50,730 bases of DNA from Mageeibacillus sp. UBA5442 (GTDB taxonomy: Bacteria > Bacillota > Clostridia > Saccharofermentanales > DTU023): positions 1 to 50,730 of the forward strand of contig DIRG01000053.1 in the NCBI GenBank assembly GCA_002427475.1, in the 5' to 3' direction. The position numbers and the translations under genes were made by a program. Below the pieces are notes generated by a model. It searched no databases. It was given only the letters and a program-made list of their open reading frames with translations, and had not been told where the DNA came from. Positions 11,681 to 46,361 of this stretch are shown in pieces (within the stretch, counting starts at the first letter, position 1; every line of letters starts with the position of its first letter).

Positions 11681-12871
11681 TTATGGTTGCAGTGAATCTC
11701 TCAATTCTTCAACTGCGCCAGTCTCATCACCAATAGCTGTTGGGACTTCAATCTCACCACTTACGATGCCTTCCTCTGCAGCCTGGACTTGTGCTTTAAC
11801 TTCATCAGGTGCATAGGTGTCGAAGTTTTTGTCAGTTACGATGCCAACTCCGCCTTCAGTAATACCGAGCAAAAGGTCTTCGCCGTAGTGTTCACGTCCG
11901 GCATCCAGCTCATCAAAGAACCAGATAATTGAGTTGCCGATATTTTTGAGTCCGCTGGTCAATGTAATAGAGGCCAGCTCTTCAGAGAAGGTCAGCTCTT
12001 GGTCAGAGTCAACGCCGATGAACCATGCTTTACCGGTTTCGAGTGCGGCTTCAGCTGCACCATTACCGGAGTTACCGGCAACGCCCCAGATAATGTCAGC
12101 ATTGTTGTCGTTGATCATGGAGATGGCCAATTCTTTTGCTCTGGCCGGGTCTACGTAACTGTTGACGTAACGGGTATCCACTTTGACGTCTTCATTAGAA
12201 TACTGAGCACCTAAGAGGAAGCCATACAGGAAGTCATTGATAACCGGGCTGTCAACGCCGCCGACAAATCCGAGTACATTGTCTTCATTGATTTTGTCGA
12301 GGCTGGTTTCCTGTGTCATTGCTCCTGCAAAGACACCGACCAAATAACCCATGTCATTTTGTTTGTAGTTGATGTTTACGATATTGTCGCCTACACCGGC
12401 TGAGTCGTAAATCAAATACTTCTGATCAGGGTATTCAGCAGCTACTTCGTTCACGTAGTCAGGCATCTGGTAGGTTCCACAGATGATGAGATCATATTGT
12501 CCTGATTCAGATACTTCATATAGAGTACTGAGCCACTGGGGTTGATCTTCATCAGCGCCGCCCATTTCGATGGTGCGATAGGTAATGCGGCCGGCTGCTT
12601 CCAATTCTGCCAATCCTGCTTCTGCTGAGTCGAAGAAAGATCTGTCGCCGAGAGTTCCGTTAACTAAGTTAACAACATTAAACACTTCGTCTTCTGGATC
12701 TTCTGGATCTTCGGGATCTTCGGGGTCTTCGGGGTCAACCGGGTCGGTTGCGCCTGGCTCATTAGTTTCTTGAGCCGGATCCGATGGTTCTGCTGGTTCT
12801 GAAGGTGCACATGACACCAACATCGTCACTGCTAATAGCAGGCTCAGAACTGTCAATAATATTTTTCTCAT
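11681..12871 (-). CDS. BMP-family (PnrA/Med/NupN-like) nucleoside-binding lipoprotein
   Basis: A signal peptide with lipobox LVSC is followed by a Pro/Glu/Asp linker (PEDPEDPEDPEDPED) and then a BMP-type binding domain. AGGAGG RBS. Confidence 0.9.
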   Translation of the reverse strand: MRKILLTVLSLLLAVTMLVSCAPSEPAEPSDPAQETNEPGATDPVDPEDPEDPEDPEDPEDEVFNVVNLVNGTLGDRSFFDSAEAGLAELEAAGRITYRTIEMGGADEDQPQWLSTLYEVSESGQYDLIICGTYQMPDYVNEVAAEYPDQKYLIYDSAGVGDNIVNINYKQNDMGYLVGVFAGAMTQETSLDKINEDNVLGFVGGVDSPVINDFLYGFLLGAQYSNEDVKVDTRYVNSYVDPARAKELAISMINDNNADIIWGVAGNSGNGAAEAALETGKAWFIGVDSDQELTFSEELASITLTSGLKNIGNSIIWFFDELDAGREHYGEDLLLGITEGGVGIVTDKNFDTYAPDEVKAQVQAAEEGIVSGEIEVPTAIGDETGAVEELRDSLQP

Positions 12872-14405: not shown

Positions 14406-14969
14406 ATGGCTAAGGTACTTGGTGATAAAGATAAGGACAAACTTCTGAACATCATAGAAGAACGATATATTCAAAGCCTCGAGAGTAGAAAGCTTTCTAC
14501 AGTTAAAGGTTGGAATGAGATTGAATCACGTCTGAGAAGACACTGGTCAAAACTGTGGTCTTTGTCCCAAATGGAAACGAGTGGCGGCGAGCCTCGTTTA
14601 ATTTCTGTTGATGATCAAGGAAATTTATTATTCATAGACTGCTCTGAAGAAACACCTGCAGGTCGTCGCAATGTCTGCTATGATCGCGAAGCCTTGGAGT
14701 CTCGCAAGAAGCATAAACCTAAAACTAGCTGTCTTGATATGTGTCAGGAAATGGGAGTCGAGCTTCTATCCGAATATGAGTATCGTGATCTGCAGAAAAT
14801 TTATGATTTAGACTTGAGGACATCTAGCTGGGTCAAGACTCCAGACAAGATACGCAAGCTAGGCGGAGCCCTGTTTTGTGATAGACGTTATGACACAGTC
14901 TTCCTTTATCACAACGGAGCTGAATCCTACTACTCTACACGAGGCTTTCGCGCCAAATTGGAAATCTGA
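14406..14969 (+). CDS. DUF4256-like protein
   Basis: 187 aa. The motifs METSGGEP, CSEETPAGRR..CYD, TSSWVKTP, LGGALFCDRRY and YHNGAESYY..RGFR match my memory of the DUF4256 family. Confidence 0.55.
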   Translation: MAKVLGDKDKDKLLNIIEERYIQSLESRKLSTVKGWNEIESRLRRHWSKLWSLSQMETSGGEPRLISVDDQGNLLFIDCSEETPAGRRNVCYDREALESRKKHKPKTSCLDMCQEMGVELLSEYEYRDLQKIYDLDLRTSSWVKTPDKIRKLGGALFCDRRYDTVFLYHNGAESYYSTRGFRAKLEI

Positions 14970-14981
14970 AAGATTCAATTC

Positions 14982-15084
14982 ATGAATCAGTCAAACCTGA
15001 TAACAACTCACATTTCGTGCCAGGCACGATTTATGAATTAGTCAAGTCTGTCAAACAACTCAAGTTTCGTGCCAGGCACGACTA
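14982..15084 (+). repeat. Tandem duplication (about 51 nt x 2), each unit carrying the TCGTGCCAGGCACGA palindrome
   Basis: Unit A (14982-15032) and unit B (15033-15084) both begin ATGAAT(C/T)AGTCAA and end AACAACTCA(CA/AG)TTTCGTGCCAGGCACGA. Together they fill the convergent gap between the DUF4256 and GIY-YIG stops. Confidence 0.8.
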
Positions 15085-15321
15085 GAGATTAAACAGTGCG
15101 ATCTTCTCTGCCCTACTCAGCTTCTTTATAGCAAATTCTCTGCTCATAGCTTTTTCTTTGGTATCAAACTCTTCCAAGTATTTTAGCTTTACCGGGTACC
15201 TGCCTCGAGTATACTTAGAACCTATTCCTGAATTATGCTCCTCCAGCCTTCTCTCAATATCCGTCGTCCAGCCCGTATAAAGCGTTCCATCGCTACATTC
15301 CAGAATATAAACAAAATTCAC
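15082..15321 (-). CDS. GIY-YIG nuclease-family small protein (UPF0213-like)
   Basis: 79 aa. It reads FVYILECSDGTLYTGWTTDIERRLEEHN and has the later ...E...K motif of the GIY-YIG domain. It starts 5 nt downstream of the CDGSH gene. Confidence 0.85.
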   Translation of the reverse strand: MNFVYILECSDGTLYTGWTTDIERRLEEHNSGIGSKYTRGRYPVKLKYLEEFDTKEKAMSREFAIKKLSRAEKIALFNL

Positions 15322-15326
15322 GGATC

Positions 15327-16049
15327 TTAATCCTCAGGAAGTTCGTCCAGCTCATCTAATCCGTCTATATACTTCACTCTAATATGCTGACCATCACAAA
15401 AAGGCATATTCTTAGATTTTCCGCATCTACACAAAGTAATCCTATTTCTCACTTCATAGGTCTCGCCATCAGCTGAAACAATCGGAATACCGCCCTTCAC
15501 TGACAAAGGTCCACTCACACCCATTTCCGGATCTTGCAGCACTTCAATCGTGGGATCGTATTCAGTTTCGATTTCCTGACCGTCCTCATCAGTCAACACC
15601 AATCTACCTGACGGGCACTGACAGGCAGCTTTGATCGCCTCTTCTCTGATCTCGTCGCCATCATCAGTCATCTCCACCAGTTCCCAGGCATCGCCGGCTT
15701 CACGATGGCAAAACCTGGCATAAGCACAACGACCATCATCGTATAATTCCATGTCCGGACCCAAAATCCTCTGTTTAACTCGATCTATATAATCGTCCTT
15801 AGAAGCGGTCTCAGTGCCATCGAAGTTTTCATTTATATGTCTTCCGTCACAAAAAGGCGGATTCTTCGACTTACCACAACGGCAAAGAGTATACGTATTT
15901 GCTTGAGGCAGCTCACGACCATCCTCATAGACATAACCCTTCTCCCCGTGAGGAGTAATTATCTTTTCAACCAAAGGCACATTTCCCGTCACAACGTAAG
16001 GACCGTCTTTAATAATTTTTATTTGTGGATTTCTTCCCTTGTCGCTCAT
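15327..16049 (-). CDS. CDGSH-type iron-sulfur protein with two CDGSH motifs flanking a central Cys-rich domain
   Basis: CRCGKSKNPPFCDGRH and CRCGKSKNMPFCDGQH fit C-x-C-x2-S-x3-P-x-C-D-G-x-H. The central cysteines are C..FC......ACQCPSG. Confidence 0.85.
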   Translation of the reverse strand: MSDKGRNPQIKIIKDGPYVVTGNVPLVEKIITPHGEKGYVYEDGRELPQANTYTLCRCGKSKNPPFCDGRHINENFDGTETASKDDYIDRVKQRILGPDMELYDDGRCAYARFCHREAGDAWELVEMTDDGDEIREEAIKAACQCPSGRLVLTDEDGQEIETEYDPTIEVLQDPEMGVSGPLSVKGGIPIVSADGETYEVRNRITLCRCGKSKNMPFCDGQHIRVKYIDGLDELDELPED

Positions 16050-33283: not shown

Positions 33284-34153
33284 CTATTTAGTATCAAAGG
33301 CGTATACCGGTTCTAATTTACTCTGTACTTCGATTTTTTTGTCCAACTTTTGCAACATCCGTGATCGATCACGCGGCAGCTCTCCGCGGACGCGAAAAGC
33401 GATTGCATCGTGGAGGCCGTCATAGCAAAGCGCAGTGTCGAGCAGATCTATCAGGCGACGCGCTTCTTTCAAGTTCTCAAGCTCGGAGGCCGGCTGAAAG
33501 TCTCCCCTTTCAATGTCATTATAGATGGGTGCCTCTTCATGCAGGAAAAGAGAAAAATTGATTATGCGCTCCGGCTTATGCTGATTGAAAAAGAGAGCCA
33601 GCTTCTCAGCATTCTCTTCTCCCCTAGCTTGGCCGGCTAGACCTGTCATGATATGTGCATTGAAACTAAGTCCCGCTTGTCGCAAGCGCTCGATCTGCTC
33701 AACAGCCGATTCCAAATTATGATCCTTAAGCATGAAATCCAATACAGAAGGCAGACCGCTCTCGATGCCCAAATAAAGACGCTTCAGGCCAGCTTCGCGT
33801 AATTGAAGCAGTTCTTCGTCCGACTTGCGCTCAATGTCCGTTACAGTGGCATCAAGGTTTACCATCTCGCAAGAAGGTAAGTATTCTCTAATCATGAACA
33901 TTATCTGCAAGAGCCGATTTGTAGGCATGGCTAAAGCATTACCATCACCCAAGAAGACCTGCTTCGGTTTTCCGCCCACTGACTGTACGCGGCGCAGTTC
34001 AGCTTCTACTTGATCTAGAGGTAAAAGCCTATAATCCACGTGTTTAAACAAAGTACAGAACTTACAAATGTTGTATGCACAACCAACCGATACCGGCAGC
34101 ATAAAAGAAGCCTTTTCCATCGGTGGACGGCAAATTTGACCTTCATAATTCAC
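33284..34153 (-). CDS. Radical SAM protein (function unknown)
   Basis: A GTG start follows GGAGGGAGGG. The N-terminal cluster motif is GCAYNICKFC, preceded by CRPPMEKASF. GDGNAL and GIESG motifs are present. Confidence 0.75.
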   Translation of the reverse strand: MNYEGQICRPPMEKASFMLPVSVGCAYNICKFCTLFKHVDYRLLPLDQVEAELRRVQSVGGKPKQVFLGDGNALAMPTNRLLQIMFMIREYLPSCEMVNLDATVTDIERKSDEELLQLREAGLKRLYLGIESGLPSVLDFMLKDHNLESAVEQIERLRQAGLSFNAHIMTGLAGQARGEENAEKLALFFNQHKPERIINFSLFLHEEAPIYNDIERGDFQPASELENLKEARRLIDLLDTALCYDGLHDAIAFRVRGELPRDRSRMLQKLDKKIEVQSKLEPVYAFDTK

Positions 34154-35045: not shown

Positions 35046-35924
35046 CTAGTCTACATCAGCTGTCGTTAAGAGTTTTTTGTAAGCTAGGGGTGACATCCCT
35101 TCCCTTTGCTTAAAGGAGGCTGAAAAATGTGCACTGCTTAAGAAGCCGCACAGAACAGCAGTCTTCTCAATGGAGGAATCAGTCTTCTCGAGGATTTCCC
35201 TAGCCTTGTTGTGGCGGCAATCCATAATGCAGCGATAAGGAGTTTTGCCGACATATTGCATAAACACCCTCTGTAAGTGCGCTGGGCTGAGGAAGACTGC
35301 TTCGCTAACATCCTTGACAGTAATGTTGCTACTATAGTTGCTCTCAATAAACCTCAGAGCTTCTTGTACGATAGCTCGAGAACCGCCCTGCTCTCCGTTA
35401 GCAATCTTCTGCTCCAGCTTGGCGGCCCGCAACAATAAAATCGCGATTTGATTCTCTAAACTTTCAAGCATAAGTCGATTGCTAGCTTCATAGTCTACGA
35501 TCTCAGAAATCAAGGCCTCTATAACATCCAACAGGTGATAACCATATGTGGTGTTCAGCTTTTTAAAAACTAAATCACCCACACCTCCGGTCAGCTTGTA
35601 GATTTGCTCCATATAATCCGGTTTGACACAGATAGTGATATATTTTGCGGGACTTGCTGCTTCGACAGGATGAACTAGGAGATCATCTCCGGGCGCCATG
35701 CAGATGAGACTGCCTTTCTTGAACTGATGCTTAACTGAGCGAATCGTAACAGGAGGCGGCGTTGTGAAGCAGATGACAAAGTGATACTCTTCGACAAACA
35801 GCGGTCGATTGACAACGAACTCTTCCGGGATAAAAACAGCCAGATGCTCGCTGATGATTGACTTTGTGTTGTTGTGAATATTTGCAGGTATCTTTTGTTC
35901 GAAATAATCGAAGTTCCTTCTCAC
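35046..35924 (-). CDS. AraC-family transcriptional regulator (cupin-like N-domain plus HTH_18)
   Basis: A GTG start follows AAGGAG. The C-terminal double HTH reads SPAHLQRVF...GKTP..........A..L, with FSSAHFSASFK. It starts 38 nt downstream of the last DUF62 paralog, on the same strand. Confidence 0.85.
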   Translation of the reverse strand: MRRNFDYFEQKIPANIHNNTKSIISEHLAVFIPEEFVVNRPLFVEEYHFVICFTTPPPVTIRSVKHQFKKGSLICMAPGDDLLVHPVEAASPAKYITICVKPDYMEQIYKLTGGVGDLVFKKLNTTYGYHLLDVIEALISEIVDYEASNRLMLESLENQIAILLLRAAKLEQKIANGEQGGSRAIVQEALRFIESNYSSNITVKDVSEAVFLSPAHLQRVFMQYVGKTPYRCIMDCRHNKAREILEKTDSSIEKTAVLCGFLSSAHFSASFKQREGMSPLAYKKLLTTADVD

Positions 35925-35962
35925 AACGTTCTCCTTAAAGACAAATATGTTTCTGCTACAGT

Positions 35963-36448
35963 TTAACCTTCTTTTGAAAAATATTGCGGCCCCAACTGCT
36001 CGAAACTCTTTTCACCTGCTGCCAAGAGAGCTGCACAGTAGGCAAGGTCTATGCCGTGAAGTATTTCGCTACCCTGTTCATCTGCATAAGTCGCCTTCAG
36101 TTCGCTTAAATCGCGCATCTCTTTAAGGCCGTGCTGTTCCTCCACATATTTAAGGCTTCCGTTGTCCGGCGTAAAAATGTAATAACCGTCCTCCGTTAAG
36201 GCGGCGCAGGGTCGAAAGCTCGTCCCCATAGACGGATCTACTACTGAGACAAAGGTTGTGCCTTCAGGCCAGTGTAAGAGCTGCGCGGCTAGATTTTGCC
36301 CCGCAGCCTTAACGTTAAACTGAGGCACATGATGCGTAAGATCGAACACCTTCAACTGGGCTTGCACACTCTTGACTACACCGTACATAGCAGCGGCACT
36401 ATTGCCATGACCGAAGTCTGACTGCAGTACAATACAAGCTGAACTCAT
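35963..36448 (-). CDS. DUF62-family (SAM hydroxide adenosyltransferase/halogenase-like) paralog 5, N-terminal domain only
   Basis: 161 aa with QSDFG, FVSVVDPSMG, TPDNGSL and LHGID..YCAALLAAG. It stops where the C-terminal beta-barrel domain of the other paralogs begins. ATGA overlap with paralog 4. Confidence 0.75.
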   Translation of the reverse strand: MSSACIVLQSDFGHGNSAAAMYGVVKSVQAQLKVFDLTHHVPQFNVKAAGQNLAAQLLHWPEGTTFVSVVDPSMGTSFRPCAALTEDGYYIFTPDNGSLKYVEEQHGLKEMRDLSELKATYADEQGSEILHGIDLAYCAALLAAGEKSFEQLGPQYFSKEG

Positions 36449-37293
36449 GCTTCCTCTTCCTTGACAATGTCGATTCTCCAGGCATCTCCGACGCCAATCG
36501 AATAATGATGAGCAAAGTTATTTTGGTTAATAGCCAATCCCATAAAACCGGTGCTGCTGTTATACATGATCTCCTCACCTACTTCGGTGAAACCGAAGGC
36601 GCGGTGATACAATACGCATTTATCAAATTTTGTCTGATTATTCCATGTAATTGTTGCTCTAACTACATCACCGTGGGCAATGCCTGTCTTTTCAAAATCT
36701 TCAATGCGGATATTGGTCTCGAGATTACCGAAAGTATCCATAATGTCAGTAATATAGCCATGCGCTTGGTTTTGACTTACATCGGCACAGGGAATGTCAA
36801 AGGTAACAATATCTGACACGGGATAGGCAGGACCGACCTCTTCATATGTGATGACGCCGGCGGCCAAACGTGCCGCGCAGTATGCGAATAAATCTCGACC
36901 GTGAAAAATACTCGTCTTTTCCGTTCCTTTATAGCGATTTGTCTGCTCATCAATTTCTCTGATTTCATCGATGCCGAACTCATGCAGCAAATGCGTCAGG
37001 CTACCATTGTCGGGGGTGACAATGTAATAGCCATTCGATGTTTTGGCAATACTTGCTTTCCTCTCAGTACCGACACCGGGATCAACTACTGAAACAAATA
37101 TTGTCCCCTGAGGCCAAAACGGCATTACTCCACGCAAAGAGGACGAGGCTTTCTGAACATTAAACTGCGGGATTGTGTGTGTGATTTCGTATACGTCCAG
37201 CGACAAATCTACTTGCTTGCAGACTCCAAACATTGCTCCGCCGCCACCGACACCAAAGTCAGTTTGCATGACAACACAGGGCTTCATCTCCAT
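36445..37293 (-). CDS. DUF62-family SAM hydroxide adenosyltransferase-like paralog 4
   Basis: It has QTDFG, FVSVVDPGVGTERK, TPDNGSL and FHGRDLFAYCAARLAAG. I prefer the ATG at 37293 (AAGGAG 7 nt upstream) over the track start at 37323. Confidence 0.85.
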   Translation of the reverse strand: MEMKPCVVMQTDFGVGGGGAMFGVCKQVDLSLDVYEITHTIPQFNVQKASSSLRGVMPFWPQGTIFVSVVDPGVGTERKASIAKTSNGYYIVTPDNGSLTHLLHEFGIDEIREIDEQTNRYKGTEKTSIFHGRDLFAYCAARLAAGVITYEEVGPAYPVSDIVTFDIPCADVSQNQAHGYITDIMDTFGNLETNIRIEDFEKTGIAHGDVVRATITWNNQTKFDKCVLYHRAFGFTEVGEEIMYNSSTGFMGLAINQNNFAHHYSIGVGDAWRIDIVKEEEA

Positions 37294-37319
37294 ATCTATG
37301 CACTCCTTCATATTTCTTC

Positions 37320-38174
37320 TCATTTTTCTATAAGCACTTTATATTCGCAGGCACTGTGGCCTTTTTCACTAATATCCTGAAGATACTTGGCTACAAAACT
37401 CCTCTGATTAAGCCCGAAGCCTAAGTACTCACTGGTACTGCCATTAAATAAAATCGGCTCACCTATATCTACAAAACCGAAAGAACGGTGATAAAGCACT
37501 GTTTCATCGAAGATAATTTCCTCTTCTCTTCTTATGCGCAGGCGCACTCGGTCTCCTTCTTTGATACCTATACTCATAAACTCTGCGACGGTAATGTTGA
37601 AACTCACATTGCCAAAATGCTCTGAAGCATCGAGAATACAGCCTTCAGCTCTACCCTGTGATAAAGTCGCTCGTTTAAACTCGTAGAGGACACAGTCGGA
37701 AACTGCGTACTGCGGCCCGACCTCTTCGTAGGAAATCTGGCCGGAAGCTAGTTTAGCAGCGCAATAAGCGTAGACATCGCGACCATGAAAGGTATTCTTA
37801 TGCTCGCTACCCGGCAGCCTGTTAGTGCTCTCATCGATTTCCCGCACTTCGTCTATGTCTTCTATGAGTGCCGTCAGGCTTCCGTTGTCCGGAGTTACCA
37901 CATAAGAACCGTTCTTAAGTAAAGCAACAGCAGAACGACGCTTGGTCCCTACCCCTGGATCTACGACAGAGACAAAAACCGTAGCCGCAGGCCAATAAGG
38001 GATTGTTGCCCGCAGCAATTCTGAAGCCTGCCTTACGTCATATTGACGAACGTTGTGATTCAAGTCGAACACTCCCAGGGATCGATCAACTAGCTTAATA
38101 ACGCCGTACATAGCGGCTACGTAACCGGTAGAAAGACTGAAGTCTGTCTGTAAGACGATAAAGGGTTTACTCAT
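37320..38174 (-). CDS. DUF62-family SAM hydroxide adenosyltransferase-like paralog 3
   Basis: It has QTDFS (Ser instead of Gly), FVSVVDPGVGTKRR, TPDNGSL and FHGRDVYAYCAAKLASG. 8-nt overlap with paralog 2. Confidence 0.85.
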   Translation of the reverse strand: MSKPFIVLQTDFSLSTGYVAAMYGVIKLVDRSLGVFDLNHNVRQYDVRQASELLRATIPYWPAATVFVSVVDPGVGTKRRSAVALLKNGSYVVTPDNGSLTALIEDIDEVREIDESTNRLPGSEHKNTFHGRDVYAYCAAKLASGQISYEEVGPQYAVSDCVLYEFKRATLSQGRAEGCILDASEHFGNVSFNITVAEFMSIGIKEGDRVRLRIRREEEIIFDETVLYHRSFGFVDIGEPILFNGSTSEYLGFGLNQRSFVAKYLQDISEKGHSACEYKVLIEK

Positions 38175-39003
38175 CTAGCTCTCTCCTCTTTTTGATTGAA
38201 ATATTGTACTCACTATAATCGGCGGTTTCGCTCGTTATCTCAGGCAAGTATTTAGCGATAAAATTGTCTTGATTAAGAGCAATGCCCATATAGCCGCTGC
38301 TACCGTTAAAGAGAACAGCTTGTCCCTTTGCCACGTGGCCGAAAGAATCCTCATAAGTCATTGCAGCATCAAAGAGAATAGCGTCATTCCGCGACAACTC
38401 TACTTGCACGGTCTCTCCCTTTGTAAAGCCTGTCTCCTCAAAGTCGTCAGTAGAAATGTTGAGCGTAATGTTGCCGAAATTGGGCAGTATCATAGCGATG
38501 GCACCACATGCTTCTCCGGGCTTAATTTCAACTGCTGCATCTTTGTAATTAACTAGATTCTGCGGCTCTACGAGCTGCCCGAGATCAGCCAGCATCGTCC
38601 CTCTATTGGCTAAGCCGGCAGCGAAATGAGCATAAGCCGCCAGCTCAGTATCAAAATCGGAGAGGTCGAGACGCACAGCCTGTGAGATTCCGAAAGTTTT
38701 CTGCACCAAAGTCAGGCTGCCATTGTCAGGCGTCAGGACGTATCTCCCATTGCTAGTCAGTACTGCGACTGCCCCGCTAGAATCAGACTGCCCAACCATA
38801 GAAACAAAGACTGTCTCCTCAGGCCAAAACGGCAATACAGAGTAAAGCATTGCAGAGGCATCGCGAACGGCAGCTTTCTTAAAACAGTGCTGAACTGAGT
38901 AGACGTCAAGCTCACAATCTGCACGCATTAGCTCTCCGGTCAAAGCAGCAGCCTTTCCGTTTTCTAGTCCAAAGTCCGTTTGCAAGACAACGGGTGCCCT
39001 CAT
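38167..39003 (-). CDS. DUF62-family paralog 2, motif-degenerate (probable non-catalytic)
   Basis: It keeps QTDFG, FWPE.TVFVS and TPDNGSL. DPGVG..R is replaced by VGQSDSSG, and the FHGRD segment is deleted. The ATG at 39003 lies 1 nt after the paralog 1 stop (TAAgATG). Confidence 0.75.
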   Translation of the reverse strand: MRAPVVLQTDFGLENGKAAALTGELMRADCELDVYSVQHCFKKAAVRDASAMLYSVLPFWPEETVFVSMVGQSDSSGAVAVLTSNGRYVLTPDNGSLTLVQKTFGISQAVRLDLSDFDTELAAYAHFAAGLANRGTMLADLGQLVEPQNLVNYKDAAVEIKPGEACGAIAMILPNFGNITLNISTDDFEETGFTKGETVQVELSRNDAILFDAAMTYEDSFGHVAKGQAVLFNGSSGYMGIALNQDNFIAKYLPEITSETADYSEYNISIKKRRELDE

Positions 39004-39004
39004 C

Positions 39005-39859
39005 TTACTCACTCTCGCTTTTGCTAATCTCCACCAGCCACTCCGGACCATAGCCCAGCTGATAGTCTGTCACGAGGTTACCTTGATTAATCGCCAGCAT
39101 AGCAGTTGCAGTCTCTGAACTAAGAAGTACCTTGTCGCCAACGGGAACAAAACTAAAGCTAGGCTCATGTGCCAATTCTTCATCAAGAATGACCTGATCA
39201 AGATGTTTGATTTTCACTTTGACGCGATCACCATAATGGATGCCGTTATCCGCCAAGTAAGTAAAAGGTATGTTAGTGCCCACAAGGCCAAAATGATTAG
39301 TAGCTTCATTAATCATGCCGCTTAGCACATTGTCCTTGACTGCGGGCTTGACATAGGAAGCCATTACAATGTCTTCAACTGGATAGGCAGAACCGACTTC
39401 TTCAAAAGTAATCACTCCGGCAGCCAGACGCGCCGCACAATAAGCATAGACATCACGGCCATGGAAGATATGGATGTGTCTTGTTTCAGGATAACGGTTG
39501 ATGCTCTCATCAATGATGCGAACCTCTTCAATACCAATTTGTTCTTTGACATAAGTAAGTGTTCCATTATCGGGCGTTACAACATAACTGCCGTTTGAAA
39601 GTTTCGCCACACAAGATCTGCGCTCCGAACCGACTCCCGGATCGACGACAGAAACAAAGACCGTGCCTGTCGGCCAGAAGGGTATGGCATAGATCAAGGC
39701 ATCAGATGCTGCCAAGACATCAAACTTCGGTATGGCATAAGTCGCATCAAAGACGTCCAGCTCGTCGCTGACGATACGACACACCCCATACATAGTGCAA
39801 ACAGAAATATTGTCTGTACCGAAATCTGTCTGCATAACCACTGCTGCTTTTTTACTCAT
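39005..39859 (-). CDS. DUF62-family SAM hydroxide adenosyltransferase-like paralog 1
   Basis: It has QTDFG, FVSVVDPGVGSERR, TPDNGTL and FHGRDVYAYCAARLAAG. The ATG at 39859 follows AAAGGA, 23 nt after the ECF T-component stop. Confidence 0.85.
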   Translation of the reverse strand: MSKKAAVVMQTDFGTDNISVCTMYGVCRIVSDELDVFDATYAIPKFDVLAASDALIYAIPFWPTGTVFVSVVDPGVGSERRSCVAKLSNGSYVVTPDNGTLTYVKEQIGIEEVRIIDESINRYPETRHIHIFHGRDVYAYCAARLAAGVITFEEVGSAYPVEDIVMASYVKPAVKDNVLSGMINEATNHFGLVGTNIPFTYLADNGIHYGDRVKVKIKHLDQVILDEELAHEPSFSFVPVGDKVLLSSETATAMLAINQGNLVTDYQLGYGPEWLVEISKSESE

Positions 39860-39882
39860 AAATATCCTTTCGCTGCTAGTTT

Positions 39883-40800
39883 TTATCTGAACCACTCCAT
39901 AAAGAACAGAGTGTCAAAAATATTAGTCTTCGTTATGTTTTCCACTTCTACGAAGGGAGCCCAAATGGTCACCGGGTAGGGATTGATTATCTTTGTATAG
40001 ATGATGTAAAAAACGATAAGTCCGGCAAAGACAAGACCTGCTTTGCGCAAAACCTTATCCAATTTAGTCAGTTCGTGTTCTGCAAACCAAGTGCGCTTTT
40101 TCAGCTTGCCGAAGCTACGTAAATCCATGGCGTTAGCAATCATCTCCACTCGGTCGAATGAGGACAAAATCAAAGGCACCAGGATTAAGCCCGTTTGTTT
40201 TAATCGTTCGCGCAGCGGAGCTTTCTTGCTCATTTCAACGCCGCGCATCTGCATACTGTTGCGTATGGCCATGAAACGGCGGGCAATGTCAGGAATTGTG
40301 CGATACGCAAGCGAAACAATGATGCAGATTCTATAAGGTAGCTTGACAAAGTTAAGACCCGCTGCAAACTCAGAAGGTGTTGTTGCCAAGACGAAAGCGA
40401 TCACGACAGTGAAGGATGCTATCCGCTTAAGGAACGTAACAAACACATACCAGAGCCACTCTTGAGTGATATAAAGCCTGTCCGTAAACTGCCACAAAAC
40501 AGTGTGAGAACCCACATGTGTCAGGCCGGCATCGGGCGAGAAGAAAAAGAGCATAATATTGCCGATAATGCCGACGGTGAAAAACATGAAGCCAAATAGG
40601 AACAGCAGTGGCTTGTAGTTTGGCCTCATTGAAATAATGGCCGCCAAGGGAAAGACCATTAAAGGGATGATAATGCGAATATCGAAGGTCGCTATAATAG
40701 CGAGAGTAAAAAGCAGGAAAAGAACTACTTTTGTTCCTCCGGTAAGCTTATGTACCGGAGTGGAGCCGGGAATGAAATTAATTACAAATTTATTATTCAT
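39883..40800 (-). CDS. ECF transporter transmembrane (T) component (CbiQ/EcfT family)
   Basis: 305 aa polytopic protein. The Ala-Arg-Gly-like coupling helices read AIRNSMQMRG and ANAMDLRSFG. ATGA overlap with the ATPase gene. Confidence 0.85.
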   Translation of the reverse strand: MNNKFVINFIPGSTPVHKLTGGTKVVLFLLFTLAIIATFDIRIIIPLMVFPLAAIISMRPNYKPLLFLFGFMFFTVGIIGNIMLFFFSPDAGLTHVGSHTVLWQFTDRLYITQEWLWYVFVTFLKRIASFTVVIAFVLATTPSEFAAGLNFVKLPYRICIIVSLAYRTIPDIARRFMAIRNSMQMRGVEMSKKAPLRERLKQTGLILVPLILSSFDRVEMIANAMDLRSFGKLKKRTWFAEHELTKLDKVLRKAGLVFAGLIVFYIIYTKIINPYPVTIWAPFVEVENITKTNIFDTLFFMEWFR

Positions 40801-42521
40801 TGTCTCAGCCTCCTCTCATTCGCAATGAAGCCCGAAACAACTGTTTCCGCCTGAAGTCCAATCTGTGCTGCCAGTGAATAAAGTGAGGGCTTAATCAAAT
40901 TAGCCTGTTCAATAACGGAATCGTCCGAGAAAATCTTAAACACCTCTTCGTCAGCAATAAGTTGGCCGTCAGAAAATACAACACAGCGTTCAGTGTGCTC
41001 TAAAGCTAAGTACATATCATGTGTTATCAAAACGATTGTCTTGCCGTGTTCTTTGTTCAAGACATCGACAAATTGCATAATCTCTGTATAGTTACGATAG
41101 TCCTGCCCTGCCGTCGGTTCATCCATAATAATGACATCAGGCATTAAGACTAAAATAGATGCTACGGTAATCCTTTTCTTTTGCCCGTAGCTGACAGCAT
41201 CCACCGGCCAATTGCGCATAGGATATAGATTACAAGCATTTAAAGCCGCAGTGGCTCGCTCCTGTATCTCGGAGGTAGGAAGATCACGCAGAGTCAAAGC
41301 CAGCTCGACTTCGTCTTTTGTATTGTCTTTGATTATCATCTGATTCGGGTTTTGCATTACATACCCGATTCGCTCACCTATCTCACGGATAGACAGATCA
41401 GAACAATCCTCCTCGTTAATATGAATCTTGCCTTCATTAGGCCTGATCACACCACAGATCAGCTTAGCTAAAGTTGACTTTCCCGCTCCGTTCTTACCCA
41501 CAATTGAAATGCGCTCGCCTTTTTCAATAGTTAAAGAAACATCTTCTAGGACGTTTTCTTTTTCGTAAGCGAAATCAACATTCTCCACGCTCAAAATCTC
41601 AGAAGATTGAGTTCTTTCTGTTTTCCGTTGAATCTTGGAGAAAAACGCTCTTAACTGATCCTTCTGCTTCTCTGATAGATGAAGCTCTGAAACATCATCC
41701 AGTATTTGTCCCGGTTCAAACTCACAGCCTGCACGCTTCATTGCAGTAATATACAAGGGTTCCCGAATACCATATTTCTCTAAAAGGTCGGTACGAAGCA
41801 ATTCATCCGGCTCCATATCCGCAACAATTCTGCCCTCATCCATCAGGATGATACGATCAAGATTACAGTGCAAAACATCTTCTAGACGATGCTCGATGAT
41901 TAAGATGGTTCGTTTTCCTTCTTGATTTAAATTATCAATGAGCTCTACAGCAGACTTACTTGTTCTTGGATCTAAGGCAGCTAGCGGTTCGTCAAAGATC
42001 ATGATATTGACATCATTGCCTAAGACACCCGCTATCGCCACCTTTTGCTTTTGGCCGCCCGACAAGTCGAACGGCACAGCTTTTATGAAATCAGCCATGC
42101 CGACAGTTGCAGCGTGCTCTTGCACGAGGGGTAACATTTCTTCTCTGGGCATGGCGATGTTTTCCATAGCAAAGGCTATATCCTCTCCCACGGAAAGACC
42201 TACAAATTGTGCGTCGCTATCCTGCAACACTGTACCTACATTTTGACTCAATTCAAAAATTGACAGTTCCTGTGTATCTTGTCCTTTGACACGTACACTT
42301 CCAGTGATAGTACCTTCGTACGAGAAAGGGATCAGCCCGTTGATGCAGTTTGCAAGAGTAGACTTGCCACTCCCTGAGCCGCCCAAAATCAAAACCTTTT
42401 CACCGGTAGCTATTTGCAAATTAATGTCATAAAGAGTGGGTTTTTGCTGTGATTTATATTGAAACCCAAAATTTACAAACTCAATTACTGCGTTATCCAA
42501 CAAAACCCTCCCCTTATGCAA
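40797..42521 (-). CDS. ECF transporter fused double ATPase (A1-A2, YkoD-like architecture)
   Basis: It has two NBDs: GGSGSGKST/LSGGQKQK/MIFDEP and GKNGAGKST/VSYGQKKR/IIMDEPT. The track start is a TTG. The real start is probably the TTG at 42503 or 42500, just after AAGGGGAGG. Confidence 0.9.
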   Translation of the reverse strand: MHKGRVLLDNAVIEFVNFGFQYKSQQKPTLYDINLQIATGEKVLILGGSGSGKSTLANCINGLIPFSYEGTITGSVRVKGQDTQELSIFELSQNVGTVLQDSDAQFVGLSVGEDIAFAMENIAMPREEMLPLVQEHAATVGMADFIKAVPFDLSGGQKQKVAIAGVLGNDVNIMIFDEPLAALDPRTSKSAVELIDNLNQEGKRTILIIEHRLEDVLHCNLDRIILMDEGRIVADMEPDELLRTDLLEKYGIREPLYITAMKRAGCEFEPGQILDDVSELHLSEKQKDQLRAFFSKIQRKTERTQSSEILSVENVDFAYEKENVLEDVSLTIEKGERISIVGKNGAGKSTLAKLICGVIRPNEGKIHINEEDCSDLSIREIGERIGYVMQNPNQMIIKDNTKDEVELALTLRDLPTSEIQERATAALNACNLYPMRNWPVDAVSYGQKKRITVASILVLMPDVIIMDEPTAGQDYRNYTEIMQFVDVLNKEHGKTIVLITHDMYLALEHTERCVVFSDGQLIADEEVFKIFSDDSVIEQANLIKPSLYSLAAQIGLQAETVVSGFIANERRLRQ

Positions 42522-42570
42522 TAGGACATAATAGAAACTATCATTACTGCCTCTGTCTATTCAATCTTAC

Positions 42571-43164
42571 TTAGTATTCTTCACTCATATCTTCAGTTAA
42601 ATTAGTCTTCGCAGCGTAACGCTTCGCTAAGAGCAAGAGTAGCGGAATGCCAACGACAATCAGAACCAGCGAGTTGCCGGCTGATGCGAAGAGTGCCTGT
42701 AGCAAGGTCACATTCAGGTCAGCTGCATAGAAAAAGTGCGAGAGAACCGGAGTAAGCAGTCCGAAAGCCACCACGTTTCCAACTACACAGAGCACTGAAT
42801 AAATAACAGCCTGTTTAACAGTGAAAATACCTTCTTTGATGCGAACACCGTAAAGTGGCAAAAGAGCCACGAAAAATGCCATCACACCATTTCCTATAGA
42901 CCAATCAAACCACATACCCCAGCCACCGATCAAATCGGCCAAGACATTACCGACGGCACAACTTACCACGGCCGGAAGTGTGCCAAAGAGTCCACCCACA
43001 ATAACCGGAACGATCATTGCTGCTGAAAGTTGGGTATTAGAGAAAATCGGTATGCCACCATATACCATTAGAACTCCATATAGAGCTGCACCTATAGCGA
43101 CTGCGACGATTGTTTTGGTGTTCCATTCACCGACAATCAGTTTTGATTTTTTTTCCTTTGTCAT
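42571..43164 (-). CDS. ECF transporter substrate-specific (S) component, substrate unknown
   Basis: 197 aa with about six hydrophobic helices. The N-terminus W.TK.IV..AIGAALY is typical of the ECF_trnsprt family. It is the first gene of the operon, with a GGAGA RBS. Confidence 0.7.
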   Translation of the reverse strand: MTKEKKSKLIVGEWNTKTIVAVAIGAALYGVLMVYGGIPIFSNTQLSAAMIVPVIVGGLFGTLPAVVSCAVGNVLADLIGGWGMWFDWSIGNGVMAFFVALLPLYGVRIKEGIFTVKQAVIYSVLCVVGNVVAFGLLTPVLSHFFYAADLNVTLLQALFASAGNSLVLIVVGIPLLLLLAKRYAAKTNLTEDMSEEY

Positions 43165-43270
43165 TGTTGTCTCCTTTTAACTTGTTTTACACCTGATGCC
43201 TATTTGTATAAAAATACCCCTTTTGTCTGCAAATCCTTTCGTCATTTAACTTGTTCACAAACTTGTTCAA

Positions 43271-43299
43271 AGCATAGCAATTAGTACTAAGTCTGTCAA
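43271..43299 (-). promoter_or_regulatory. Candidate sigma-A promoter of the ECF-DUF62 operon
   Basis: On the minus strand I read TTGACA (43299-43294), a 17-nt spacer and TATGCT (43276-43271). Confidence 0.45.
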
Positions 43300-43383
43300 C
43301 GTACGTCTGATCAACTTGTGAACATTAACGTGTACTGCTATGATGACAGTAGTTTAAGCCCAAATGTTCGGAGTTATCTACTT

Positions 43384-44112
43384 ATGAAAAACAATGTTTT
43401 CAGCAGCCACGTGCCTTCTTATGTAAGTATTTATAATGTACTTTACCGCGATATTATTAATAATGTCTATGTTGAAGACAGCATTCTACCAAGTGAAAAT
43501 GTGTTGGCCAAAAAATACAACGTCAGTCGCAACACTTTGCGACAAGCTTTGGATATTTTGAGTGAGGATGGCTTGATTGTAAAGTCTCAAGGCAAAGGAA
43601 CCGTAGTTGCTAAGCGTAATGTACATACACATAACAAACGAATTTTTAACCCAATGATAACTTTATGTAATGAGGAAATCAGCGATATTGAGGTTTATTA
43701 CAATTATTCAAAACCTACTGACATCGCCAAAGCTCAACTCAGCCTTATCAAGAGTGACATTGTTATTGCCAGCGATCTGGTTTACAAAGTAGGTAAAACC
43801 GTTGTCGGCTATGCCTTTGTACAGGTTCCAACCAAGATGTTTGATTTTCTTGATGTCGACGTATCGCAGAAGAGCGGTATACATGACCTGCTCAACCAAC
43901 AGATTTATGATGTAGCAGTCAGGCAAAGCCTCAGAATCCAAATGATCTCCGCAAACGAACAGGAAGCTATGTATCTGAAAGTGAAAGAGAGCACTCCGCT
44001 CTTAATGATCAAGTCAATTCTCTATCATGCCAACTACGGACCCTTTGCCCGCTGCAAATTTTATTTTATTCCAGAATGGTATAAGTTAAAGTTTACAATC
44101 TCAGCCCTTTAA
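43384..44112 (+). CDS. GntR-family (HutC subfamily, UTRA effector domain) transcriptional regulator
   Basis: It has the winged HTH LPSENVLAKKYNVSRNTLRQALDIL..DGLIVKSQGKGT.V and a UTRA-like C-terminal half. I prefer the ATG at 43384 (GGAG upstream) to the track start at 43318. It is divergent from the ECF operon. Confidence 0.85.
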   Translation: MKNNVFSSHVPSYVSIYNVLYRDIINNVYVEDSILPSENVLAKKYNVSRNTLRQALDILSEDGLIVKSQGKGTVVAKRNVHTHNKRIFNPMITLCNEEISDIEVYYNYSKPTDIAKAQLSLIKSDIVIASDLVYKVGKTVVGYAFVQVPTKMFDFLDVDVSQKSGIHDLLNQQIYDVAVRQSLRIQMISANEQEAMYLKVKESTPLLMIKSILYHANYGPFARCKFYFIPEWYKLKFTISAL

Positions 44113-44203: not shown

Positions 44204-44410
44204 TTAATGACAATTTATTATCACAGCATTTAGCTGGTTCATCATTTCCTCAAGATCAAGCTCGTGCTTGTCGGCAATACTCTCCAGAGAATCAAATAGG
44301 TACGTGCAGAGCAAGCATGTTCCTATCTCTTCATCATAGCTACGCAAAATCTCCTCAGTCTCAGAATATTTATAGACTATATCAAGCGGGTTCATATCCT
44401 TACTAATCAT
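44204..44410 (-). CDS. DUF1858-like small protein (hybrid-cluster-associated redox disulfide type)
   Basis: 68 aa. The pattern I..I...YPET..IL...G..CL.C........LE.......D...L...LN (here CLLC) matches. 8-nt overlap with the 5'-nucleotidase stop. Confidence 0.5.
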   Translation of the reverse strand: MISKDMNPLDIVYKYSETEEILRSYDEEIGTCLLCTYLFDSLESIADKHELDLEEMMNQLNAVIINCH

Positions 44411-46328
44411 TAACTGCCTTCTTTCTGCGGCGTCTCAGCCTAATTACGATAAATCTAATTAAAAGCACCAGCAATACCACAATGAGTAGGACCAAGAGGA
44501 TAATTACGATAGCAATCGAATTTATTTGTCTGAAGATCCGGGTGAGGCTGAGGCTATCATCCAGAATTTTGCGATTTTGAGCTTGTGCGTACTCAGTAGG
44601 AATGGTGGGAACACCATCAACCTTTTCAAAGGATTGCATATACGAGGCAAGGGCGAACCATTCCTTGACTTCCCTGCCCTCGCTATCGTGCAGAATTGTA
44701 TCATTGTAGTCAGTTACTATATTGCCGTCAGCATCCTTTAGCTCCAGAGACAAGAGCCCTTTGGACATATCCATAACTGCTCCCAACATCTGAGCAGAAT
44801 ATAGGTCTGCGACAATGCGATACAATTTGTCGTCCTGAATGTCCACAAGTTGGCCGTCGGAAGCTATCAATCTAACATCTGTCGCTCGATTGAAAATAAT
44901 GCGGTTCGGATTGAATTGATAACTCAGGCCTGCAGAATAGAGCTGAGCAGATTCAAAGATTGGTGTAATAGATGCGTCAATCTCCGCCAAAGTCTTCAAT
45001 TCTTTGCCGGTGAGATAAACACTAGCCAGTGGATAGCCGGGAATTCCGTCTGCCCCCATACCAAGAGACATAACTTCGTAGATATCGGAAATTGTCAACG
45101 GTCCCTGATTAAAGCTGGCTCGGATGATCCCTACAGGAACGACTGAAACATCGATCGGCACATGACTGTCGCCTTCGGCCTCTTTCGTCGCATAAATAAT
45201 AGCATCGGAAATGAGGTTTCCTATGGCCTGGTCGGCATGGGTTTCATTCATCTCCCTCAAACCGGTAAAAAGATACGGATTGTAGGCAATAATCTGATCA
45301 TGGCCATCAAAGCCGTAATCCTGCAAGAATTCATTCACATAAACTCTGTACTCATCGATTTGCTCCAGTGTATCTGCGTCAGCCGGAATTGTTTCATCTA
45401 TTGCGATTAAATCGTAGTCCTTCAAATCCCAGCGGCCTGTCTCGCTCTGGACCAAATCAATCTTTCCAACATGGCCACCGTATTCACCACAGCTGACAAT
45501 ATAAGTTTCATTGACAACAATAGGCTCTTCAAGTAATGAATGTGTATGCCCGCTGACAATCACATCTATCTCAGGTACTTCCTTAGCAAGGATCTCATCT
45601 TCAGATACTTTCGAGTCAGCCCAGGTTCCGGAATGCGAGAGGCAGACGATTATATCGGGCTCTTCCTCTTCTTTGATTGTGCTGATGGTTTTCTTCGCCT
45701 GCTCAACGATGTTAGTAAAAACCACATCACTGTTAGGCGCACTCTTAGCAGCATCGTCGCCCAGCACACCAAAGAGGGCAACTCTGACATCGCCCTTTTC
45801 CATTATGAGATATTCTTTTGCACCGAAGTCTTGCATGCTTGATTCCAGCTGTTTAGCATTCGCACTGGGAGAATTGGCAAAGTCGATATTTGATATTACT
45901 ATTTCCGGCGTACGTTCCTTGCTTTTGCGAGCAGAATCTAACATCTCAGCCAAACCCTGACTGCCATAATCAAATTCGTGATTGCCGAAAGTTGTTGCGT
46001 CATAACCTAAGCTGCCCAACATTCTTAATTCGATCGCCTGCTCGGTAAAAACACTTTGGTATAAAGTTCCCATGGAAAAATCACCGGCATCAACTATGAG
46101 GGTGTTCTGCTCTGCGCTGATGGCATCAAAAATCGTTTTCAGCTTCGCAAAACCTCCGACTTCCTTTCTTTCACCAGCGACCTCAAAGGCCTTGGTATCA
46201 AGATATGAATGCAGATCGTGAGTAAAGGCAAGTGTCAATTCTTTCGCATCAGTCTCCGCTAGGACCGGTGCGGCTAACACAAGCAATAAGATCAGGACAG
46301 CCAAACATAGAGATGAGTGTTTTTTCAT
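44403..46328 (-). CDS. Bifunctional metallophosphatase/5'-nucleotidase, secreted with a C-terminal membrane anchor
   Basis: It has a signal peptide, the metallophosphatase motifs THDLHS, DAGDF, GNHEFD and GHTH, a 5'-nucleotidase C-domain, and a C-terminal TM helix followed by RLRRRRKK. I prefer the ATG at 46328 (GGAGG 5 nt upstream). Confidence 0.9.
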   Translation of the reverse strand: MKKHSSLCLAVLILLLVLAAPVLAETDAKELTLAFTHDLHSYLDTKAFEVAGERKEVGGFAKLKTIFDAISAEQNTLIVDAGDFSMGTLYQSVFTEQAIELRMLGSLGYDATTFGNHEFDYGSQGLAEMLDSARKSKERTPEIVISNIDFANSPSANAKQLESSMQDFGAKEYLIMEKGDVRVALFGVLGDDAAKSAPNSDVVFTNIVEQAKKTISTIKEEEEPDIIVCLSHSGTWADSKVSEDEILAKEVPEIDVIVSGHTHSLLEEPIVVNETYIVSCGEYGGHVGKIDLVQSETGRWDLKDYDLIAIDETIPADADTLEQIDEYRVYVNEFLQDYGFDGHDQIIAYNPYLFTGLREMNETHADQAIGNLISDAIIYATKEAEGDSHVPIDVSVVPVGIIRASFNQGPLTISDIYEVMSLGMGADGIPGYPLASVYLTGKELKTLAEIDASITPIFESAQLYSAGLSYQFNPNRIIFNRATDVRLIASDGQLVDIQDDKLYRIVADLYSAQMLGAVMDMSKGLLSLELKDADGNIVTDYNDTILHDSEGREVKEWFALASYMQSFEKVDGVPTIPTEYAQAQNRKILDDSLSLTRIFRQINSIAIVIILLVLLIVVLLVLLIRFIVIRLRRRRKKAVND

Positions 46329-46361
46329 TAAAGCCTCCAAAAATGAGTTTGTGCTACTTTC

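Follow-up and report, generated by a model that had tools for sequence, protein, structure and literature searches.

The MtsTUV transporters, a group in the ECF (energy-coupling factor) class, were reportedly predicted by Rodionov et al. in 2009 from their dependence on methionine and S-adenosyl-L-methionine (SAM) for regulation, and to our knowledge no SAM importer, of the ECF type or of any other, has been characterised in free-living bacteria. The group is listed in TCDB as the 'Methionine precursor (Met-P)' ECF family, 3.A.1.29, and its substrate has never been determined (PMC3654945). The characterised SAM hydrolases of the DUF62 family (PH0463, MJ1651, Saci0719 and StDUF62) are single-gene homotrimers whose physiological role is still argued. 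A role as (R)-SAM hydrolases has been proposed since 2020 and is disputed: one study, of 2025, questions whether their real function is to hydrolyse endogenous (R,S)-SAM (PMC12120602), and a preprint of 2025 argues for that function in archaea (10.1101/2025.08.29.672840). In the present work we describe a locus of Mageeibacillus sp. UBA5442 in which five specialised DUF62 paralogs (P1 to P5) lie in one operon with a dedicated ECF importer. The region studied, positions 35046-44112, is part of a stretch of 50,730 nucleotides (contig DIRG01000053.1, here called the window) and was analysed by profile searches with Pfam and NCBIfam, following a first reading of the bare sequence (the original prediction) which had called the role of the hydrolases essentially unknown; this was only partly true.

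We suggest, with a probability of roughly 0.45, that the module serves the scavenging of SAM-type adenosyl-sulfonium compounds, by which we mean SAM itself, its close derivatives and the inactive sulfonium epimer (R,S)-SAM; these would be cleaved at the C5'-S bond to give adenosine and methionine. Uptake and hydrolysis of such compounds are proposed because four lines combine, namely a dedicated importer of a high-affinity class, enzymes for which displacement at C5' of SAM is the one chemistry known, regulation of the SAM-off type and methionine-uptake genes as neighbours. The genes of the transporter and of the DUF62 array are the following, in the order of transcription.

42571 to 43164, minus strand: ECF S component, 197 amino acids (aa), PF07155/COG4720
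40797 to 42500, minus strand: fused A1A2 ECF ATPase, 567 aa from a TTG at 42500 (the longest open reading frame, ORF, has 574 aa and reaches 42521)
39883 to 40800, minus strand: ECF T component for transmembrane coupling, 305 aa, CbiQ family
39005 to 39859, minus strand: P1, full-length DUF62 protein with PF01887 and PF20257, triad intact (DPGVGSER, FHGRD)
38167 to 39003, minus strand: P2, full-length DUF62 protein, predicted pseudoenzyme, triad absent, C-domain strongly conserved
37320 to 38174, minus strand: P3, full-length DUF62 protein with PF01887, triad intact
36445 to 37293, minus strand: P4, full-length DUF62 protein with PF01887, triad intact, the paralog nearest to the solved hydrolases (2zbu, 1.5e-41)
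35963 to 36448, minus strand: P5, DUF62 protein of 161 aa with the N-domain only, covering positions 1-145 of the 145 of PF01887

The original prediction had described nine consecutive minus-strand ORFs and a divergent regulator; all are present where it had placed them, and the seven junctions that it listed are correct base by base. The ATPase and T genes overlap by ATGA, 23 nt separate T from P1, P1 and P2 are joined as TAAgATG, and P2 and P3 overlap by 8 nt. Between P3 and P4 there are 26 nt with an AAGGAG, P4 and P5 again overlap by ATGA, and 38 nt with AAGGAG and a GTG start lead from P5 to an AraC-type gene. To these we add the gap of about 70 nt between the S and ATPase genes, and the start of the ATPase gene and its ribosome-binding site (RBS) were confirmed. 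Such spacing is compatible with co-transcription and translational coupling.

The assignment to a dedicated ECF transporter was borne out, since the genes for S, fused A1A2 and T are contiguous, with those of the ATPase and T overlapping, which is the arrangement of group I. The S component scores 102 bits with PF07155 and 120 bits, against a cut-off of 99, with NF010182 (PRK13661, 'ECF-type riboflavin transporter'). The ATPase contains two ABC_tran domains and a DUF3744 domain and reaches 428 bits with TIGR04520 (cut-off 315). The T component matches PF02361 CbiQ (1e-27, 97 bits against a cut-off of 25) and falls short of the cobalt CbiQ equivalog TIGR02454 (61 bits against 111.8), so by its profile scores it is a generic ECF T protein and not the cobalt one. 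There are 925 clusters homologous to the S component, the nearest orthologs being those of uncultured Oscillospiraceae, Christensenellaceae and Clostridium sp. CAG:1024. No match at E<=1 was found when the S component was compared by sequence with the S components of solved structure.

All five ORFs of the array belong to the DUF62 family as had been claimed, each matching PF01887 above its cut-off of 26.3 bits (P1 139, P2 75, P3 159, P4 147 and P5 114 bits). The C-terminal beta-barrel PF20257 is found in P1 to P4 (36-64 bits, cut-off 25.5) and is missing from P5, which ends 8 residues past the N-domain; this protein had been treated as being like its paralogs, and consists of the N-terminal domain only. 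Of the motifs described as shared by all five paralogs, 'FWP' is actually [FYH]WP, and it had been overlooked that P2 is without the whole DPGVG..R and FHGRD segments. The paralogs share 31-48% identity with P1, and at the DNA level only patches of 40-46 nt, with 60-83% identity, can be aligned among them, at the two most conserved motifs. Because no more than these short and weak patches still align, the duplications are old, in agreement with the original prediction, and a recent tandem duplication is ruled out.

The catalytic residues were located by aligning P4 to the SAM hydroxide adenosyltransferase PH0463 of P. horikoshii (1wu8/2wr8). Asp68 corresponds to the D of DPGVG, Arg75 to the residue seven positions further on and His127 to the H of FHGRD. 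This triad (D-R-H) is complete in P1, P3 and P4. In P2 the equivalents of all three residues are missing, and P5 reads D-F-H, with Phe at the Arg75 equivalent, an Arg one position later and LHGID replacing FHGRD. Only three of the five paralogs (P1, P3 and P4) look catalytically competent by their residues. The AlphaFold2 model of P2 has a pLDDT (predicted local distance difference test) of 93.3 and TM-scores of 0.65-0.86 against the structures of the family; as the model is confident and superposes on these structures, P2 is predicted to be a folded two-domain pseudoenzyme and not a wreck. The curated (R)-SAM hydrolase equivalogs NF058624 and NF053629 are not reached by any paralog (best scores 114 against 350 and 101 against 470), and the fluorinase model TIGR04507 gives 28-94 bits against a cut-off of 400. 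On these scores the five paralogs are family relatives and not equivalogs of any characterised enzyme. The idea that the several enzymes might use different nucleophiles is unlikely to apply to P1, P3 and P4, for which a halogenase reading was rejected on the intact triad and the low fluorinase scores.

In order to see how far the module is conserved, one genome per species was scanned for relatives of the S component, giving 45 loci (numbered from L001 upward) that were annotated with profiles built from the window proteins. The genomes surveyed are mostly metagenome-assembled genomes, some of them probably mis-binned. The S proteins of these loci are 56-74% identical to that of the window and are spread over Clostridia, Erysipelotrichia, Spirochaetota and Coriobacteriia; the sources are Oscillospiraceae, Christensenellaceae, Lachnospiraceae, Erysipelotrichaceae, Sphaerochaeta and other spirochaetes, Coriobacteriia and a few oddly labelled bins, and the carriers of the module are gut and rumen anaerobes. 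The adjacency for which the original prediction had asked proved to be conserved: the S, ATPase and T genes (S-A-T) are accompanied by DUF62 genes in 43 of the 45 loci with an S ortholog, in several phyla, and one of the remaining two ends at a contig edge. The DUF62 genes come after S-A-T, or before it in one lineage.

Five DUF62 genes in the order P1-P2-P3-P4-P5 are present in 14 loci and six genes in one; nine loci have four genes, four have four genes and an extra copy on the opposite strand, 16 have two genes and one has a single gene. Tandem arrays are thus the rule in this ECF-linked clade of DUF62, contrary to the earlier statement that these genes normally occur singly. In a neighbour-joining tree P1 to P5 form orthologous groups common to these taxa. 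A very common organism of the Hadza gut carries the four-plus-one array (5 DUF62 genes), in Treponema at least one DUF62 gene precedes S-A-T, on a contig that begins just upstream, and in Fructilactobacillus a single DUF62 gene stands beside a PF07155 S component of 23% identity, a fused ATPase and a T gene. The link with ECF genes does not hold for the whole DUF62 family, since no ECF neighbour was found for the DUF62 gene of Pasteurella.

When the flanking ORFs were clustered, only two families were seen to travel with the module. One is an M20 dipeptidase of the PepV/Sapep type (TIGR01887, 273 bits against a cut-off of 208), which lies between T and the DUF62 pair in 10 loci (L033, L034 and L036-L043, for instance L038:13140-14477); the other is a GNAT acetyltransferase in four Lachnospiraceae loci (L022, at 14809-15669, L023, L026 and L046). 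Their substrates may be the amino-acid moiety that is set free, or conjugates with peptides or acyl groups. Because the DUF62 link is conserved and the flanking genes are not, we regard the transporter and the enzymes as one functional unit.

Some observations concern single loci of the survey. In Clostridium sp. CAG:1024 (L003:10312-10906) two overlapping ORFs stand in place of a single P5 ortholog, owing either to a frameshift from faulty sequencing or to a true loss of the N-only gene in this one lineage. Two 'Bacteroidaceae' bins (L011, L014) and a 'Methanomethylophilaceae archaeon' bin (L043) hold loci whose sequence and organisation are near-identical to those of spirochaete or Erysipelotrichaceae versions; these loci are probably mis-binned, or the module has possibly been transferred horizontally. 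In Sphaerochaeta-type loci the copy on the opposite strand has His changed to Tyr (TFYGRD; L014:16648-17652, L015:16649-17575 and L045:16531-17457, all on the minus strand), and the first DUF62 gene of the riboswitch-controlled Oscillospiraceae operons has His changed to Asp (VFDGRD; L017:8186-9040, L018 and L020). The soil chlorinase ClA1 also has Tyr at the His127 position of the alignment (TWYGKD). The copies substituted at this position may use a different nucleophile or mechanism.

The connection with methionine and SAM comes from the regulation of the relatives. SAM-I riboswitches, above the Rfam gathering score, lie immediately upstream of DUF62a-DUF62b-S-A-T operons in three Oscillospiraceae loci (L017, L018 and L020; 77-80 bits). 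Others precede the S gene by 64 nt in L033 (57.5 bits) and by 95 nt in L042 (59.5 bits), and a model built from two of the riboswitch hits finds the same sites again. This methionine/SAM-responsive control, a trait of the Met-P type, was seen in these five loci and not in the window itself. Moreover, L033 contains a T-box leader at 804-1024 (118 bits) whose specifier region, GAAC-AUG-G, is read as methionine; it is followed at 1072-3546 by metQ (NlpA lipoprotein), metN (ABC and NIL domains) and metI, and immediately after these by the SAM riboswitch and the ECF operon. From the riboswitches and the methionine T-box neighbour we conclude that the ECF-DUF62 system belongs to the methionine/SAM regulon. 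As an importer of methionine, metQNI, adjoins it in L033, the ECF system would therefore be a second, non-methionine entry to the methionine/SAM pool. The S proteins of the riboswitch-controlled operons are 57-65% identical to that of the window, and for this reason the same class of ligand is likely.

In L043 the riboswitch precedes a MetK-like gene of 260 aa that abuts S-A-T-M20-DUF62-DUF62. This protein (L043:7525-8307, plus strand; also L038:6155-6940, plus strand) is strongly reduced in comparison with SAM synthetases of about 390 aa, and only an N-terminal HPDKVAD region and a C-terminal GGG..GKD.SK.D.S patch can be aligned. Its gene is placed directly behind a SAM-I riboswitch; in L043 it adjoins the ECF-DUF62 operon, and in L038 it lies about 3 kb upstream. 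The product could be a SAM synthetase of minimal size, or a descendant of MetK that has taken on a new role. Two other riboswitches, one for purine (L012:3879-3980) and one for SAM, the latter on the opposite strand (L046:4747-4844, minus strand), lie several kb from the module and appear to control other genes.

One of the unusual characteristics of the arrays is the regular presence of a triad-less and a truncated member. According to motif tables of 161 DUF62 sequences, the position-2 proteins (P2-type) of four- and five-gene arrays have lost Asp, Arg and His in every lineage, and often the ligand motifs TDFG and TPDNG are partly lost as well. Their C-domain is unusually conserved (NFGNL.L.I, SFG[YF][VA] and LFNGS[ST]GYMG.GLN), and nearly all arrays of four or five genes end with an N-domain-only gene of about 165 aa. 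N-only genes occur in 27 loci, and 26 of these also carry a triad-less full-length gene, the exception being L012, whose P2-like gene has the triad intact; none of the 17 loci lacking an N-only gene carries a triad-less one. The ratio of nonsynonymous to synonymous substitutions (dN/dS), taken from three Christensenellales genomes, is 0.04-0.10 for S, A, T, P1, P3 and P4, 0.10-0.13 for P2 and 0.14-0.20 for P5. All eight genes are under purifying selection; P2 and P5 were rejected as decaying pseudogenes, their ORFs being intact in about 25 diverged genomes at a dN/dS of 0.10-0.20.

In the structures of FlA and PH0463 each active site is formed where the N-domain of a subunit meets its neighbour's C-domain. 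The pairing of P2 with P5 and the purifying selection on both suggest, on gene content, an obligate hetero-oligomer. The mixed oligomers of the original prediction have in this way gained support from a near-universal pairing, and the oligomer itself stays at the level of a proposal. A search of 1.84 billion representative proteins with P5 found further stand-alone N-only proteins and also fusions of an intact, triad-bearing N-domain with a degenerate second N-domain, with no C-domain. In two such fusions, P0249 (366 aa) and P0250 (346 aa), a low-complexity linker lies between the two N-domains. These fusions suggest that N-only modules may associate with each other or with donors of a C-domain.

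The operon of the window is flanked by two regulator genes, and the elements involved in its control are these.

43384 to 44112, plus strand: HutC-type GntR regulator, winged helix-turn-helix (wHTH) and UTRA effector domain, divergent from the operon
43165 to 43383, minus strand: control region with promoter, three candidate operator copies and leader
O1, O2 and O3, within the control region: candidate GntR sites, motif also written TTGAACAAGTT
35046 to 35924, minus strand: AraC-family regulator (Pfam HTH_18/HTH_AraC) at the 3' end of the operon

For the GntR gene the longest ORF starts at 43318 and the 242-aa product of the gene caller at 43384. The protein has the features of the HutC subfamily, with PF00392 (2e-16) as N-terminal wHTH and PF07702 UTRA (3e-9) at the C-terminus, and its dN/dS is 0.035. 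A strong sigma-70-type promoter was found in the control region, its boxes being TTGACA at 43299-43294 and TATGCT, with an extended TG, at 43276-43271; the spacer has 17 nt (10/12 matches with TG). The candidate operator TTGAACAAGT(T) is present three times, at 43324-43311 (O1), 43270-43260 (O2) and 43257-43248 (O3); O2 and O3 stand in tandem immediately after the promoter and the third copy lies toward the regulator gene. GntR orthologs (220-330 bits) are divergent from S in L003-L009, L016 and L019 and are placed at the 3' end of the operon in the Lachnospiraceae loci L022, L023, L026 and L046, and the motif is found directly past the -10 box in 8 of the 9 loci with a divergent GntR gene. 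The TTGAACAAGT operators overlapping the promoter are presumably bound by GntR as a repressor, a role that, like its effector, we infer. The AraC gene has its own AAGGAG RBS and a GTG start.

No RNA element could be recognised in the window: an Rfam scan of its whole length gave no match at the gathering score, a permissive scan of 42900-43500 gave one chance-level match only, and the leader (about 100 nt, of which 106 nt were folded) is unstructured, with a fold z of 0.18 against shuffled sequence. A riboswitch or other leader RNA in the window was discarded on these grounds. A leader segment GATTT(T)GCAGACAAA (window 43222-43235, minus strand) is common to the leaders upstream of S in the window, L016 and L019. 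In the latter two it is the loop of a hairpin rich in GC, and a U-run follows, an attenuator-like arrangement; the window copy is without the hairpin and may be a remnant or a protein-binding site.

Taking these elements together, a working scheme can be proposed. The dedicated transporter (S, A1A2 and T) would import the sulfonium compound, and a hetero-oligomeric set of DUF62 proteins would then cleave the C5'-S bond with water, releasing adenosine and L-methionine or the corresponding thioether. Methionine would return to SAM synthesis and adenosine would enter nucleoside salvage. P1, P3 and P4 would be the catalytic subunits, their differing C-terminal loops perhaps setting the preference for epimers or analogues, and P2 and P5 would form a split protomer in mixed trimers or hexamers, the C-domain coming from P2 and the N-domain from P5. 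In the lineage of the window the operon would be repressed by HutC/GntR at TTGAACAAGT, presumably until substrate or product relieves it; in the two-paralog relatives the SAM-I riboswitch would turn the operon off when SAM is plentiful. In an external pool kept at 37 °C, part of the SAM will have epimerised at sulfur. Members of the family differ in diastereoselectivity, StDUF62 preferring (R,S)-SAM and FlA1 (S,S)-SAM (PMC12120602). Several catalytic paralogs would make sense if they act on such a racemised pool. Moreover, a seemingly wasteful hydrolase and its induction at low SAM would be reconciled if it is exogenous SAM that is salvaged. The original suggestion of uptake and cleavage of SAM or a sulfonium compound is thereby favoured by the SAM-I riboswitches on orthologous operons and the T-box-metQNI neighbour, the substrate being deduced from this context. 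The complete picture, in which many gut anaerobes take up SAM like a vitamin through an ECF importer and treat the imported pool, partly racemised or damaged, with an obligate hetero-oligomeric DUF62 machine made of a P2/P5 split protomer and three catalytic paralogs of different specificity for epimers or analogues, is advanced tentatively, and we incline to doubt that it will hold in every part.

Several points weigh against SAM scavenging. The SAM riboswitches occur only in two-paralog variants, and the five-paralog type of the window, which has none, could have diverged in function. We know of no S component that binds SAM. All scores with the (R)-SAM hydrolase equivalogs are far under the cut-offs (60-114 bits against 350-470), and a SAM hydrolase expressed at low SAM looks paradoxical unless it acts on imported or unusable SAM. 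The M20 dipeptidase and the GNAT protein of the variant operons are not explained by plain SAM hydrolysis, and the counts for the co-occurrence of dead-N and N-only genes ignore kinship, the loci not being phylogenetically independent. Finally, the S component passes the NCBIfam cut-off for a riboflavin transporter, and its Pfam family, PF07155, also contains the B6-vitamer S components PdxU and PdxU2/HmpT (PMC9997740); the riboflavin name is made doubtful by the genomic context.

This last point also favours co-regulated proteins with separate functions, the transporter importing a non-adenosyl methionine precursor or a B-vitamin-like heteroaromatic compound of the B6, hydroxymethylpyrimidine (HMP) or riboflavin type and the DUF62 enzymes carrying out housekeeping repair of (R,S)-SAM in the cell's own pool; membership of both in the methionine/SAM regulon would then be all that unites them in an operon. 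The characterised DUF62 enzymes do act on intracellular (R,S)-SAM (10.1101/2025.08.29.672840, PMC12120602), and TCDB lists an ECF family for a methionine precursor (PMC3654945). Nevertheless we regard this explanation as unlikely, given that the link between transporter and DUF62 persists across phyla when every other neighbour changes, that repair alone would not call for two to five specialised paralogs, among them a pseudoenzyme and a half-protein, and that a SAM hydrolase switched on at low SAM, without a new source of SAM, would be counter-productive. Nor does the S component show detectable sequence similarity to any solved S component.

SalL and FlA can run in reverse in vitro, building SAM-type compounds. 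A transfer of the adenosyl group can accordingly be imagined, in which the 5'-deoxyadenosyl moiety is joined to an imported nucleophile, different paralogs serving different nucleophiles, or SAM-like compounds are built from a 5'-substituted adenosine and methionine. The family includes reversible halogenases (the PDB matches are FlA, SalL, ClA1 and ClA2), extra copies are changed at the His127 position ('DRY' in L014, L015 and L045, 'DRD' in L017, L018 and L020), and a SAM-off riboswitch would suit a route that produces SAM. On the other hand the water-activating triad is complete in P1, P3 and P4, fluorinase scores do not exceed 94 bits against the cut-off of 400, the formation of adenosine is effectively irreversible and we know of no natural gut pool of 5'-halo-adenosines, all of which make this route quite improbable. 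There seems to be equally little chance that some or all of the DUF62 proteins are non-catalytic accessories, which would serve as sinks for the ligand in the cytoplasm, or chaperone or regulate the ECF transporter, as YkoF would with YkoEDC. Such a role would account for P2, which is conserved and folded yet has no catalytic residues, and for P5, without the C-domain required for a complete site, and dedicated ECF operons with soluble binding proteins do exist (ykoCDEF); three paralogs, however, keep all catalytic and ligand-binding motifs and are strongly constrained by purifying selection (dN/dS 0.05-0.10), and the two-paralog variants hold only triad-bearing copies. Salvage of SAM-type compounds is the explanation that we retain.

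The window also contains other genes which had been considered in connection with the module. A nucleoside-uptake operon (6053-12871, minus strand) encodes a Bmp/PnrA-type binding protein, a duplicated ATP-binding cassette (ABC) ATPase, two permeases and two inosine-uridine-preferring nucleoside hydrolases; the predicted nucleoside salvage operon is therefore present in the window, and it is unlinked to the ECF module in other genomes. A 5'-nucleotidase of 645 aa (44403-46340, minus strand; Metallophos and 5_nucleotid_C) has an N-terminal signal-like segment, a C-terminal hydrophobic anchor and an RRRRKK tail, and is found beside the GntR gene in this organism only. Gene 33284-34153 (minus strand) encodes a radical-SAM protein of 289 aa, weakly like PhpK-type B12-dependent methyltransferases (60 bits against 600), which is not conserved near the module. 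The AraC gene occurs among the loci only in L001, which is the same organism. The 5'-nucleotidase, the nucleoside ABC operon, the radical-SAM gene, a lipoprotein gene and the AraC gene were rejected as parts of the module, none of them recurring beside it elsewhere; the AraC gene, the 5'-nucleotidase and the nucleoside operon, which the original prediction took as relevant context, are consequently uninformative on its function, and so is the radical-SAM gene.

This family of loci ties the role of DUF62 and the import of SAM together through conserved synteny and control by SAM riboswitches. If our reading is right, the bacterial role of DUF62 would be the salvage of exogenous SAM and not only the repair of endogenous (R,S)-SAM, SAM would join the cofactors traded in gut and rumen communities, and the DUF62 arrays of many uncultured Clostridia, Erysipelotrichia and spirochaetes would be accounted for. 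It would also provide a natural hetero-oligomeric enzyme composed of active, dead and truncated paralogs. The paralogs may moreover serve as biocatalysts with different sulfonium stereoselectivities, to make or clean up SAM analogues. The literature that we searched, which did not extend to the founding papers on Met-P, holds no account of DUF62 genes linked to ECF components, nor of DUF62 arrays with several paralogs and the pseudoenzymes and half-proteins among them.

With regard to known systems, the DUF62 hydrolases share with P1, P3 and P4 the fold, the triad and the expected attack of water on C5' of SAM. FlA, SalL, ClA1 and ClA2 have a homologous fold, cleave the C5'-S bond of SAM and place their active sites at trimer interfaces, as in the family of the paralogs; these halogenases are without the Asp/Arg/His triad that P1, P3 and P4 keep and belong to natural-product clusters. 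For the transporter, Met-P (MtsTUV) is by its description the closest named class, having likewise a dedicated S component, a duplicated ATPase, a T component and regulation by SAM riboswitches, which here is seen in the relatives; in the papers searched, nothing on Met-P refers to DUF62 genes linked to it, to arrays of several paralogs or to SAM as the substrate. Uptake of scavenged SAM is known from the EamA/DMT-type transporters RP076 of Rickettsia and CTL843 of Chlamydia, both obligate intracellular bacteria, which differ from the present system in their unrelated transporter class, the lack of hydrolases and their ecology. The logic of the operon resembles that of C. difficile queK-qrtT-queL, an ECF salvage operon under a preQ1 riboswitch (PMC11477304), and of B. 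subtilis ykoCDEF, in which ECF uptake is combined with co-transcribed enzymes that free a useful moiety from the imported precursor; these operons differ in S family, enzymes and class of ligand, and in the locus described here the enzymes form a paralog array with pseudoenzyme members.

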